A DNA stretch of 64,000 bases from contig JAGFZV010000008.1 in NCBI GenBank assembly GCA_017889545.1, positions 70,874-134,873 of the forward strand, read 5' to 3'. The notes below the pieces were generated by a model. The model was not told the DNA's origin. It saw only the letters and a program-made list of their open reading frames with translations, and ran no database searches. The position numbers and the translations under genes are program-made. Position 1 is the first letter of the stretch. Each line of letters starts with the position of its first letter. Below, piece after piece: positions 33,051 through 58,845 of this stretch. Source of the DNA: Bacillota bacterium (GTDB lineage: Bacteria; Bacillota; Negativicutes; CTSoil-072).

Positions 33051-33701
33051 ATGTTTGTGAAAACACGGATGACCGCTAACCCAGTCACCATTAAATCGAC
33101 GGCGACAATAGCCGATGCTTCGGAAATTATGCGTGCGAATAAATTCCGCCGTCTGCCGATCGTTGATGATGGCCGTCTAGTCGGGATTGTAACCGACCGT
33201 GACTTGAGAGAAGTCTCTGCATCGCCGGCTACGACACTTTCTATTTTTGAATTGAATTATTTGCTGGCCAAAATGAAAGTGAAGGATATCATGAAACGCA
33301 ATGTAATCACTATTTCTGCAGAGGCGACAATTGAAGAAGCTGCTTTAAGCATGTATAATAACCGGATTGGCGGTTTGGTTGTTGTTGATGATCAGGGCAA
33401 AGTCACGGGGGTCTTAACAGAAACAGATATTTTTAAATCTTTTGTCGATGTGATGGGTTTAACGGAAGGCCGGACCCGCTTGACCATTGAAGTGCAGGAA
33501 GATCAAATTGGCGTTTTACATGAAATAACCGGCGTTTTCAAAGACTTGGGAATCAATATATGCAGTTTGGCAAGTTATACGCAACCGGATGGGAAATTTG
33601 AAATCATTATTCGTGCGGTCGTGAATGATGTGCCGGCCCTGACGGATCGTTTGGCGGCAAAAGGTTATCCAGTGCAGCATGTAGCGCAAATCGGCAAATA
33701 A
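33051..33701 (+). CDS. CBS-pair + ACT domain protein (AcuB-like)
   Basis: 216 aa; two CBS motifs followed by ACT-like C-terminal domain. Confidence 0.7.
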   Translation: MFVKTRMTANPVTIKSTATIADASEIMRANKFRRLPIVDDGRLVGIVTDRDLREVSASPATTLSIFELNYLLAKMKVKDIMKRNVITISAEATIEEAALSMYNNRIGGLVVVDDQGKVTGVLTETDIFKSFVDVMGLTEGRTRLTIEVQEDQIGVLHEITGVFKDLGINICSLASYTQPDGKFEIIIRAVVNDVPALTDRLAAKGYPVQHVAQIGK

Positions 33702-33759
33702 CAATGAATATGCAATAAAACCCTTGTGCGGCAAACGAACACTATGCTAAGATAGTACC

Positions 33760-33850
33760 ATGGACCAGGCGGCTGAAGTATTTCAGCGCAGCCGGATAAA
33801 ACCGCAGAGTGCTAAACCTGCGAGACCGTAAAAGGCCGCGCAGGTTTTTT
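33760..33850 (+). ncRNA. Riboswitch-like 5' leader with intrinsic terminator upstream of the CDF gene (class unassigned)
   Basis: Hairpin gctgaa/gtat/ttcagc (33772-33787); terminator cctgcg...cgcagg + TTTTTT (33817-33850); upstream cgcaga could pair alternatively with the terminator 5' arm. Confidence 0.45.
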
Positions 33851-33873
33851 CATGTACAAAGAAGGAGTTAACA

Positions 33874-34821
33874 ATGGATCAGACAGTGAATGGCAAAAAA
33901 CAAAAAACAGCAAGATTATCTGTTATTTCCAACAGCTTTCTGATTATCATAAAACTGGTTGTCGGCTTTTACAGCGGGGCAGTCAGCATTATTTCCGAAG
34001 CAGCACACTCCGGAGTCGATTTGATTGCTGCCTTGGTAGCGTTTTATGCCGTGCGTAAATCTGGAAAACCCCCGGATAATAATCACGATTACGGGCATGG
34101 AAAAATTGAAAATTTATCGGGAGCGATCGAAGCCGTTCTTATTATTATTGCTGCGCTTTGGATTGTATATGAGGCAATTCAAAAAATTTCTGCAGCCGAA
34201 AAGCCGGAATATCTTGAATATGGTATTATCGTCATGCTGATTTCTATAGCAGTCAATTATTGGGTATCAGAAAAGTTGTTTTCTGTTGCTAAGGAAACCG
34301 GGTCACAAGCATTAGAAGCGGATGCCTTGCATTTGCGAGCTGACATTTGGACTTCCGCCGGTGTGTTAAGCGGATTGGCGGCAATCAAGCTAACCGGATA
34401 TTATTGGCTGGATCCGGTGATCGCGATTCTGGTTGCGGGGATTGTTTTTCGGGCCGGCTATAAAATGACGAGAAAAAGTTTTTTGGAATTGACCGATATT
34501 AGTTTGCCGGATTCAGAGGCTGAGAAAATTGCCGGGATTGTTGACGCCCATGTTGAAGTGATTGCGTTTCATCGTCTGCGAACCCGCCGGTCAGGCAGTT
34601 ATCGACTGATAGACATGCATGTGGTATTAGACAAAAATATGCACCTGGATAAGGCGCATTCCGTGTGCGATTCCATTGAAATTGAGATAGAGCAAAGCCT
34701 TGGTCATTGTGATGTAGTCATTCATTTAGAACCATGCAATGCGCATTGTCAAGGAGAAGCTTGCCAATTGTTTGTCAGCGAAGAAAAGGACGAAGAAACT
34801 CAAATAAAATGCACTCGCTAA
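33874..34821 (+). CDS. Cation diffusion facilitator (CDF) family divalent-metal efflux transporter
   Basis: 315 aa; six TM helices plus cytoplasmic C-terminal domain; His/Asp-rich metal-site residues. Confidence 0.85.
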   Translation: MDQTVNGKKQKTARLSVISNSFLIIIKLVVGFYSGAVSIISEAAHSGVDLIAALVAFYAVRKSGKPPDNNHDYGHGKIENLSGAIEAVLIIIAALWIVYEAIQKISAAEKPEYLEYGIIVMLISIAVNYWVSEKLFSVAKETGSQALEADALHLRADIWTSAGVLSGLAAIKLTGYYWLDPVIAILVAGIVFRAGYKMTRKSFLELTDISLPDSEAEKIAGIVDAHVEVIAFHRLRTRRSGSYRLIDMHVVLDKNMHLDKAHSVCDSIEIEIEQSLGHCDVVIHLEPCNAHCQGEACQLFVSEEKDEETQIKCTR

Positions 34822-34995
34822 CCAGTTATTACAGAAATCGAATGTTATAGGGCATCCCTTTTCAGTGGAGACGAGGTTTAAAATCTGCTGAGGAAGGGAA
34901 AAGAGGATTTTGAATTCCGTAAGTATAATATACAGATGCATAGATATATTGAATAGCAGTATTAAAAATTGCTTGCAAGAAAGGGGGATTGAAGC

Positions 34996-36024
34996 ATGGT
35001 GAAATTGACGCAGTACACCAAAAGCGGCGGTTGAGCGGCTAAAATCGGGCCAGGGGCCCTGGCACACGTGTTGTGCCAATTGACACCACAGAATGATCCC
35101 CGCTTACTGGTCGGGCTCGGCACCTCAGACGATGCAGGGGTTTACAAATTGAATGATACGACGGCGTTAATTCAAACAGTTGATTTTTTTACGCCGATTG
35201 TGGATGATCCATACCTATTTGGGCAAATTGCCGCTGCGAATAGTTTAAGCGATGTATACGCGATGGGCGGAGTGCCATTAACGGCCATGAACATCGTCGG
35301 ATTTCCAATCGGAGTTCTTGACAAGGAAGTCCTCCTGGCGATTCTTCAAGGAGGGCAGAGCAAGGTAAATGAGGCGGGAGCGCTGATTGTTGGCGGGCAT
35401 ACGATTGATGATCCAGAGCCCAAATATGGATTAAGCGTTACCGGAACGGTTCATCCGGATAAAGTGTTAACGAATGCCGGTGCAAAACCGGGAGACCGTT
35501 TGATTTTGACAAAACCGCTTGGTACAGGTATTTTGGCAACGGCAGCCCGGGCGGAGATGTTTCCGGGCGGCGTCTGTGCTGCTATGGCAAGCATGGCGAT
35601 GTTAAACCGCCTGGCGGCTGAAACGGCAACCGCGTTTTCTGTCCATGCCTGCACGGACATCACCGGGTTTGGTCTGTTGGGGCATCTATATGAAATGACA
35701 TCTGCCAGCCAAGTCCAGGCAGAAATTGATTCTCAGGCGTTGCCATTATTGCCGGAGGCCTTGGCAGCGGCCGCATACGGTCTGGTTCCAGTCGGTGCTT
35801 ATACCAATCGAGCCTATTTGAAACAGGTGACCTTTGCAGCTAATGTGCCGGAAGCACTACGCGATGTTGCTTTTGATCCACAGACTTCCGGCGGACTTTT
35901 GTACAGCTTGGCGGAACAAGAAGCGGAAAAATTATTGGCTTCTCTATGGGCGGCAGGATTAAAGCAATCCGCAATCATTGGGAAAATTTCGGAGGAAGGA
36001 ACAGGGGGAATTTATGTTTACTAA
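34996..36024 (+). CDS. selD: Selenide, water dikinase (selenophosphate synthetase), selenoprotein with in-frame UGA (Sec) at 35032-35034
   Basis: ATG 34996 (SD AAGGGGGA) gives MVKLTQYTKSGG-U-AAKIGPGALAHVL..., matching the E. coli SelD N-terminus LTQYSHGAGCGCKISP with Sec replacing the Cys; ORF track only reports 35068..36024. Confidence 0.85.
35047..35077 (+). promoter_or_regulatory. SECIS-like stem-loop(s) downstream of the selD UGA
   Basis: Inverted repeats gccagg..cctggc (35050-35064) and ggcaca..tgtgcc (35061-35077) begin 15-30 nt after the UGA. Confidence 0.45.
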
Positions 36025-37755: not shown

Positions 37756-37906
37756 TTGACGATTTTATGCGAATACGGTATAATATAACACATAAGCACA
37801 TACACAACAGGTATGGAACTGGCGGATCAGTGGAAATAACCACATGAACCATATCTGAAAAAGCCGACCGCCTGGGCATAATTTTATGACCCAGGCGGTC
37901 TTTTTA
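37756..37906 (+). ncRNA. Candidate small RNA or attenuator: sigma-A promoter + 115-nt transcript + intrinsic terminator upstream of pflB
   Basis: TTGACG (37756-37761), 17-nt spacer, TATAAT (37779-37784); terminator gaccgcctgggcataattttatgacccaggcggtc + TTTTT (37866-37905); no ORF with SD in between. Confidence 0.4.
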
Positions 37907-52523: not shown

Positions 52524-52852
52524 AGGGGAATCCCTTCAAGCCCTTCCGTCTCAGTCACTTCGGATCCAAGCGGATAAAAAATTTCCAGATTACCATATGA
52601 TCAGATATGGCGTACCGTACATTGTGCAGCTCGCATGGATGCCGCCAAAATACACCAATATCAGCCTAAAAGTAACATGGGTAAAGTATTTTGTCAATAC
52701 AATCGCGAAAGATCAGAAAAAAATTTGCATTTTCTTTTCTGATGGTGCTATAATAATTAAGTCTAGGACAACATTATAGGTTTCAAATTTCGGTTTGTGA
52801 ACCTTCCCTGCCCCGCTTGAGGGGCCATTAGTCCAGAGGAGGAGGTGATTTC

Positions 52853-57940: not shown

Positions 57941-58845
57941 ACGTCAATATTGCCGGCATTGAAATGAAGACACCCATTATTGCCGCCTCCGGGACGTTTG
58001 GCTTTGGTGAAGAGTATGAAGACTTTGTCGATTGGTCCACGGTTGGGGCGATTAGTGTCAAAGGGCTCACGCTGGAGCCTCGTCTGGGGAATCCCGGCCG
58101 GCGGGTTGCAGAGACGCCGGCTGGAATGCTGAATTCCGTTGGCCTGCAAAATCCCGGCATAGCAGTTTTTATCCGCGAAATAATGCCACGGATAAAAAAG
58201 TATGGTGTTCCGGTCGTTGTCAATATTAACGGTAACACCGTGGAAGATTATGCCCGCATTACCGAATTACTCGAGGATGTCGACATTGCCGGGATCGAAG
58301 TGAATATTTCCTGCCCCAATACGAAACATGGGTGCATGGCCTTTGGCGTTGTTCCCGAAACCGCGGCCGAAGTAGTAGCCGAGGTGAAACGTCGGGCTCG
58401 TGTGCCCATTATCGTAAAATTATCTCCTAATGTAACCGATATTGTTTCTATTGCGCGCGCCGTAGAGGAAGCAGGCGCAGATGCCATTTCATTAATTAAC
58501 ACGCTTCTGGGGATGGCGATTGATACAAAAACCTGGAAACCAATACTGGGAAATATTACCGGAGGCTTGTCCGGACCGGCTGTCAAGCCCGTTGCAGTAA
58601 GAATGGTTTGGCAAACGGCTCAGGCAGTAACCATCCCTGTCATTGGGATGGGTGGAATCACCAGCGTTCAAGATGCAGTGGAATTTTTTCTGGCAGGCGC
58701 CAGTGCCGTACAGGTTGGTACTGGAAATTTTCTAAATCCCCGGCTGATCAATGATATCGCACAGCAGTTGCCTGATTATCTGGCTTCTCATAAGCTGGAT
58801 CACATTACTCGGCTTGTTGGCCAGATGCAAAAGGAAGGTTATTAA
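57934..58845 (+). CDS. pyrD: Dihydroorotate dehydrogenase catalytic subunit (class 1B)
   Basis: 303 aa; TIM-barrel motifs ...IAASGTFGFG...GAISVKGLTLEPR...GLQNPG...; overlaps pyrK stop. Confidence 0.85.
   Translation: MLNVNIAGIEMKTPIIAASGTFGFGEEYEDFVDWSTVGAISVKGLTLEPRLGNPGRRVAETPAGMLNSVGLQNPGIAVFIREIMPRIKKYGVPVVVNINGNTVEDYARITELLEDVDIAGIEVNISCPNTKHGCMAFGVVPETAAEVVAEVKRRARVPIIVKLSPNVTDIVSIARAVEEAGADAISLINTLLGMAIDTKTWKPILGNITGGLSGPAVKPVAVRMVWQTAQAVTIPVIGMGGITSVQDAVEFFLAGASAVQVGTGNFLNPRLINDIAQQLPDYLASHKLDHITRLVGQMQKEGY

Follow-up and report, generated by a model that had tools for sequence, protein, structure and literature searches.

Riboswitches of the NiCo (czcD) class are held to owe their selective and cooperative metal binding to a four-way helical junction with six guanines. 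The cooperative, micromolar binding of Co2+, Ni2+ and Fe2+ is a property of the class, whose members respond at about 1 uM to Fe2+, Co2+ and Ni2+ but show no response to Mn2+ (PMC9389577). The physiological ligand is disputed between cobalt or nickel on one side and iron on the other, and a case has been made for Fe2+ (PMC9389577; PMC11672702). In the solved structure 4RUM, as summarised in a preprint (10.1101/2025.08.02.668262), the metal ligands are G40-G42, G81-G83 and A9, and the terminal pairs are G40-A12 and G81-A56. Rfam holds two families of this kind in a common clan (CL00122), namely NiCo (RF02683, gathering score 37 bits) and the riboswitch candidate NiCo-AnGGAG (RF03164, gathering score 64.5 bits). 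The consensus of the family can be written C-A-GGC (P2) GCY-GG-GC(P3)GC-A-GCRG (P4) CYGY-GG-GAC, and because the P3 and P4 lengths of the Rfam consensus reproduce the numbering of the preprint exactly, residues can be mapped securely from the structure onto aligned leaders. The NiCo-AnGGAG consensus has CAAGC at J1/2, a P3 with an insert of about 15 nt, an A at J3/4 and a 10-bp P4, and it ends CuGuGAGACag. The yybP-ykoY Mn2+ riboswitch likewise senses a metal and turns on metal exporters by way of a terminator, although its architecture is unrelated.

The leader considered here precedes a gene for a cation diffusion facilitator (CDF) in a 64,000-nt stretch of DNA, called the window below. A reading made from the sequence alone had proposed a metal-sensing riboswitch with a terminator and an antiterminator at this place, and the comparisons described below support that proposal, both through a match to NiCo and through canonical NiCo aptamers in orthologous leaders. 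We consider it likely that this leader works as an ON riboswitch at the level of transcription and that it is a derived, P3-less descendant of the NiCo (czcD) class (Table 1). Like NiCo, it is the 5′ leader of a metal-efflux gene with P1, P2 and P4, it has the junction bases C-A-GGC, GCC-GG and G-AC, the 5′ arm of its terminator overlaps P4 and P1 as expected for ON logic, and its position is orthologous to that of leaders that score above threshold. Unlike NiCo, it has no P3, so that its junction would be three-way rather than four-way, and it has lost G42 and carries C56 and A82. With NiCo-AnGGAG it shares GAGAC at J4/1, that is, an A at the G82 position, but it differs from that family in having CAGGC at J1/2, no P3, a C at J3/4 and a P4 of 5 bp.

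Table 1. Predicted features of the leader and the gene that follows it (window coordinates; residue equivalents in 4RUM numbering)
Feature	Position	Strand	Basis or remark
-35-like hexamer TTGTGC	33724..33729	+	read directly; TTGTRC in clade members whose sequence covers the site
Extended -10, TGcTAAGAT	33745..33753	+	TAAGAT 33748-33753, TG 33745-33746; 18-nt spacer from the -35
Putative NiCo/czcD-type aptamer, three-helix variant (P1, P2, P4)	33760..33829	+	Rfam NiCo match; R1 model; family covariation
P1 5′ strand AUGG (33760-63), with A33764 (= A9) and C33766 pairing G33824	33760..33766	+	alignments
J1/2 adenine (= A12)	33767	+	invariant in 39 leaders
P2: outer GGC/GCC, inner GCUGAA/UUCAGC, loop GUAU	33768..33793	+	sequence, fold, covariation
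J2/3 GG (= metal-ligand guanines G40, G41)	33794..33795	+	invariant in alignment A2 and in six clade leaders
A-rich linker AUAAAAC, in place of P3 and ligand guanine G42	33796..33802	+	alignments
P4: CGCAG 33803-07 / CUGCG 33818-22	33803..33822	+	95.7% paired; 5/5 pairs with double changes family-wide
J4/1: A33823 (G82 position, G to A), G33824 (= G83, pairs C33766), A33825	33823..33825	+	alignments
P1 3′ strand CCGU	33826..33829	+	alignments
Intrinsic terminator	33815..33850	+	5′ arm shared with the 3′ strand of P4, with J4/1 and with part of the 3′ strand of P1
RBS AAGGAG	33862..33867	+	6 nt before ATG; conserved in clade
CDF family transporter, 315 aa, most similar to FieF, then MntE	33874..34821	+	Pfam and TIGR01297

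The Rfam models by themselves place this leader at the margin of the class. At gathering thresholds, a search of the whole 64-kb window gave no match in the leader. A permissive scan of 33690-33900 returned NiCo at 33752-33830 over the full length of the model (positions 1-96), with 31.7 bits against the cutoff of 37, an E value of 1.2e-5 for this small local search and the P3 stem almost wholly deleted in the alignment; it was the only meaningful Rfam match to the leader in that scan. Of the two families that the sequence-only reading had named as the first to try, NiCo/czcD was accordingly recovered, at a score below threshold, and yybP-ykoY was not, since it gave no match at its gathering threshold in the window or at E <= 10 in 33690-33900. 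The close relatives of the leader, which form the clade described below, score 25-35 bits on either family of the clan; that of L083 reaches 25.5 bits on NiCo, and the NiCo scan of L082 and L084 reported nothing at E <= 0.5. The best clade score on NiCo-AnGGAG is 35.0 bits against the required 64.5 (in L081, for which it is the top clan member), and the window leader stays below 31.7 bits on that model. On a covariance model restricted to canonical leaders (R2), the intermediate leaders reach 31-38 bits and the window leader 15.2 bits (E about 0.04), no better than a match at 58731-58782 on the minus strand (16.4 bits) that lies antisense inside a 303-aa ORF and is due to chance. Membership of the NiCo class is marginal by sequence models alone, and the case therefore rests on orthologous position, intermediate forms, shared architecture and selection. 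Taken with these, the copy is best described as an atypical P3-less NiCo derivative that neither Rfam family captures.

The orthologous position is well documented. A genome scan for relatives of the CDF returned 80 loci, and a metagenome scan returned three close relatives only. Canonical NiCo aptamers lie at the same position before orthologous CDF genes in Sporomusa, Pelosinus, Desulfosporosinus and others, with the same kind of terminator overlap, and the order of liv ABC genes, a CBS/ACT gene, leader and CDF is common to the orthologous loci. In 6 of the 11 closest loci (L001, L002, L005, L006, L008 and L009) the CDF gene is immediately preceded by a NiCo aptamer that passes the gathering score, and further such aptamers precede the CDF genes of L090, L091 and L007. 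The orthologous locus, the synteny and the above-gathering scores of the intermediates L090 and L091 all point to common descent with accepted NiCo members.

The architecture is shared as well. A loose regular expression for the junction proved too noisy to use; a covariance model built from 23 leaders, with the window leader in its seed (R1), found 39 leaders in 89 sources, nearly all of them directly upstream of a CDF gene and on the same strand. In the 64-kb window R1 has a single match, at 33758-33831, whose 60.5 bits should be read with the window's place in the seed in mind. In the alignment of the 39 leaders, which was fitted to the R1 model and so somewhat favours the structure, the four helices have 88.5% of their cells paired and 16 of the 19 pairs show double changes, a level reached by 0 of 500 shuffles; slid controls gave 21-48%. 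P2 pairs are 94-98% paired family-wide, with compensatory changes, and P1, which has only 2-4 bp and is poor in L081, is 71.7% paired. The 5′ arm of a terminator overlaps 10-24 nt of the 3′ end of the aptamer in about 33 of the 39. Two exceptions to the J2/3 guanines were seen: L036 has AG, and L096 apparently has one G fewer. The leader of L094 (989-1109) is canonical except for 52 nt inserted in the loop of P4.

It is informative to compare the metal pocket of the solved aptamer with the bases found in the window. A9 (33764), A12 (33767), G40 and G41 (33794-33795), G81 (33822) and G83 (33824) are kept; G42 is replaced by a variable base, A56 by C and G82 by A. Of the four guanines that belong to the Co1/Co2 pocket, G42 and G82 are thereby replaced, and the window has neither the full set of NiCo junction purines with the G40-A12 and G81-A56 pairs nor the four-helix arrangement P1-P2-P3-P4, the 7-nt linker standing in place of P3. 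In the clade the linker reads NNAAAC or NNAAAAC (6-7 nt, the first 2-3 positions being variable), and canonical leaders have GC-loop-GC or longer at this place. The base at the canonical A56 position is C33803, facing G33822, and this change should give P4 a Watson-Crick C-G cap. The J2/3 guanines and the CC at 33802-33803 could form a 2-bp surrogate for P3, and all four of these bases are invariant in the clade. A pairing of the linker (AAAACC) with the terminator tail (GGUUUU) was set aside as uninformative, being a mere A-run against a U-run. With two pocket guanines and A56 replaced and P3 missing, metal binding may be weakened, altered or lost.

The P3-less form is shared by the window and five distinct relatives (81-96% CDF identity), which have C56 and the GAGAC form in common; GAGAC (33822-33826) is invariant in these six leaders and is also found in L090. 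In the tree of the CDF proteins, of which only the topology was used and on which leader labels taken from the regular expression are unreliable, the six P3-less leaders with GAGAC form one clade whose sister is L090/L091, and both together are nested among leaders that mostly keep GGGAC. L090 (75% identity) retains a 2-bp P3 and A56 and already has GAGAC, and L091 has P3 and GGAGAC. The P3-bearing sister leader with GAGAC and the nesting in the tree indicate that the change of G82 to A preceded the loss of P3. Reductions of P3 or other changes of J4/1 occurred independently in L011, L093, L095, L096, L007 and L069; besides the GGAGAC of L091, the J4/1 variants are G-GAC (L011, L095) and AGGAC (L007, L069). 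The leaders with a reduced or missing P3 before other Negativicutes CDF genes are L011 1685-1754, L093 1424-1483, L095 805-872 and L096 1083-1152, and L093 keeps GGGAU with, by the model, almost no P2 or P3. Judged from these alignments, the junction is labile in this lineage.

The signals around the aptamer bear out what the sequence-only reading had described piece by piece. The promoter it proposed (TTGTGC, 18-nt spacer, TAAGAT) is present at 33724-33753 and conserved in the clade; its hairpin at 33772-33787 (GCUGAA-GUAU-UUCAGC) is the inner part of P2; the intrinsic terminator it placed before the CDF start is there, with a U-run to 33850 and a 3′ arm that is invariant in the clade; and the pairing it saw between cgcaga and the 5′ arm of the terminator, where CGCAG (33803-33807) is complementary to CUGCG (33818-33822), is helix P4 of the aptamer. 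A scan for consensus promoters and terminators listed neither the promoter nor the terminator of the leader. The terminator escaped it because its apical part exceeds the 8-nt loop limit of the scan; the -35 hexamer has only 3 of 6 matches to TTGACA, and support for the promoter is therefore taken from conservation. The extended -10 is conserved as TGCTAAKAT or TGCTAATAT at an equal distance from P1 in orthologous leaders, the whole promoter reading TTGTRC-N18-TGCTAAKAT in the clade and TTTACA-N17-TGCTAATAT in other Negativicutes, and we infer that transcription starts near 33760. The stem of the terminator joins AACCUGCG (33815-33822) to CGCAGGUU (33839-33846) and has CC/GG pairs further inside; from the end of its run of six U (33845-33850) to the ATG at 33874 the distance is 23 nt. 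The distance from the end of the aptamer to the CDF gene is 44 nt, and the terminator takes in about 18 nucleotides of the aptamer. For the 121-nt leader the folding energy is -37.9 kcal/mol (z = -3.03), a value equalled by 1 of 200 shuffles.

The two folds of the leader are mutually exclusive, since the terminator and the aptamer share CUGCG and ACC, and their energies are -31.7 kcal/mol for the terminator and -17.0 kcal/mol for the aptamer, as calculated without ligand or tertiary energy, so that the terminator is thermodynamically the default. At the level of sequence and energy this is a NiCo-type expression platform, in which a terminator competes with the 3′ strand of the aptamer. The leader is most likely a metal-dependent antiterminator that switches on the FieF-like CDF exporter. 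Transcription would begin near the proposed start, and the nascent RNA would fold into the junction of P1, P2 and P4, in which the purines A33764, A33767, G33794, G33795, G33822, A33823 and G33824 are the counterparts of the metal-coordinating core seen in the solved structure of NiCo. An abundant divalent transition metal would bind this junction and stabilise P4 and P1, locking up AACCUGCGAGACC (33815-33827), a segment that doubles as the terminator's 5′ arm, so that the polymerase reads through and the exporter is made. Without metal, the much more stable terminator hairpin would form and transcription would stop at the U-run. By analogy with the parent class, the ligand is probably Fe2+, Co2+ or Ni2+.

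The protein encoded downstream is consistent with such a role. It matches Cation_efflux (PF01545, 170.5 bits), ZT_dimer (PF16916, 77.7 bits) and TIGR01297 (242.5 bits against a cutoff of 82.35); on the FieF equivalog NF050169 it scores 203.6 bits against a cutoff of 420, so that FieF is the most similar named family only. Its relatives number in the thousands, the nearest named ones, at 66-72% identity, being in the Negativicutes Pelosinus, Sporomusa, Dendrosporobacter and Lucifera. H-D/H-D transport sites are linked to CDFs of the Zn/Co/Fe type, and the N-D/D-D type to Mn exporters. The site here is H45/D49/H153/D157, of the H-D/H-D type, which sets this locus further apart from the yybP-ykoY Mn2+ riboswitch, and it is invariant between the CDFs behind canonical and variant leaders. 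From this invariance and the orthology of the CDF we infer that the exported metal is probably unchanged. The protein also has a Cys/His-rich C-terminal tail (EPCNAHCQGEAC..., residues about 288-315, window 34735-34821), in which C288 and C297 are invariant among 14 CDF orthologs and may mark an extra metal site.

A scan of 34822-34995, between the CDF stop and the start of selD, found no convincing terminator or promoter, so selD and yedF might be co-transcribed with the riboswitch-controlled CDF. The adjacency of CDF and selD is not universal, and a reverse-strand gene stands there in L092 and L093. The selD gene (34996-36024, plus strand) starts at ATG 34996 and has an in-frame TGA at 35032-35034 (MVKLTQYTKSGG-U-AAKIGPG...); the TGA falls at the catalytic Cys/Sec position, which points to a selenocysteine-containing SelD. 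The ORF finder places the start of this gene at GTG 35068. A GGGCC-AGG-GGCCC hairpin after the TGA may be a SECIS element, and yedF (TIGR03527, 35978-36616) lies 3′ of selD. Elsewhere in the window there are a ZMP/ZTP riboswitch at 37805-37884 on the plus strand (61.4 bits) and a pan motif (RF01749) at 52542-52648 on the minus strand (44.6 bits), both above their gathering scores and the only elements that Rfam reports in the window at these thresholds. The CDF locus of Propionispira likewise has a ZTP riboswitch on its downstream side (L013 4443-4522).

It is also worth considering that the remodelled junction may have altered what is sensed, either by preferring another metal or by offering fewer or less cooperative sites and hence a different threshold from that of canonical NiCo. 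We regard this as unlikely. In its favour, two of the four guanines that make inner-sphere contacts in the Co1/Co2 pocket have given way to other bases, which the clade has fixed and conserved; NiCo-AnGGAG, a family curated separately, is itself marked by an A at the G82 position; and the junction has changed several times independently in this lineage (L091, L011, L095, L007, L069). Against it, the exporter behind this leader has its orthologues behind canonical aptamers and keeps their transport site, and adenine retains the N7, so that the replacement of G82 by A may be conservative for the metal contact.

Decay of the aptamer is a considerably less probable explanation; on this view sensing has been lost, and all that the leader would still do is attenuate constitutively and terminate the upstream liv/CBS-ACT operon. 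The loss of P3 and of ligand bases, the covariance-model scores below threshold and the weakness of P1 would all fit such a relic, as would the fact that no separate terminator is seen in the 22 nt between the stop of the upstream gene (33701) and the promoter. The pattern of substitution speaks against it. Between the window and L082/L083, four-fold sites of the CDF are 37-42% identical and thus saturated, yet the 150-nt leaders are 81-83% identical. Over the six clade leaders, the variable columns are 0 of 4 in the junction, 1 of 18 in the P2 stem (a C to U change that gives G-U), 1 of 10 in P4 and 0 of 8 in the 3′ arm of the terminator, against 8 of 14 in the loops. Nearly invariant stems and an invariant junction with variable loops indicate that the RNA structure is under selection, and a plain terminator, which has no need of P2, the junction purines or the 5′ strand of P4, would not give this pattern; the P3-less variant is under purifying selection. 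The promoter conserved between the upstream gene and the aptamer likewise argues for a dedicated, regulated transcript. Had the leader shown neither a covariance-model match nor conservation, the riboswitch proposal would have had little to stand on; what was found is a sub-threshold match and strong conservation. Finally, control by a trans-acting protein or small RNA, or by leader-peptide attenuation, in place of direct metal binding is highly improbable: a 23-codon ORF (MDQAAEVFQRSRIKPQSAKPARP, 33760-33831, plus strand, from ATG 33760 to TAA 33829-33831) does span the aptamer and starts M-D-Q like the CDF, but it has no RBS, would begin at the first bases of the transcript and is a chance ORF that is not conserved (L081 has no ATG, and L082 and L083 have an early TGA and an indel), and the conservation is better accounted for by homology to a class whose direct binding of metals has been demonstrated.

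Returning to the reading that we favour, a metal-dependent ON switch of NiCo descent, what is new here is, from the comparison of leaders, a conserved variant without P3, the parent NiCo/czcD class being known. This form, with A82 and without G42, stands before a FieF-like exporter in anaerobic Negativicutes, and its sisters show the intermediate steps. Because Rfam thresholds miss clan members that are functional (in the present case, predicted to be so), current counts for the class would be underestimates. The variant and its sister leaders amount to a ready-made mutational series, from which one may learn which contacts are needed for sensing and which for selectivity. We suggest only tentatively, as a possibility on the doubtful side, that the leader is a naturally minimised, three-way-junction descendant of NiCo with perhaps retuned selectivity or cooperativity, for example an Fe2+ threshold sensor in strict anaerobes; if this is true, the natural series (GGGAC, GAGAC, GGAGAC and G-GAC, with P3 of 5, 2 and 0 bp) would map the contacts that set the specificity of the class.
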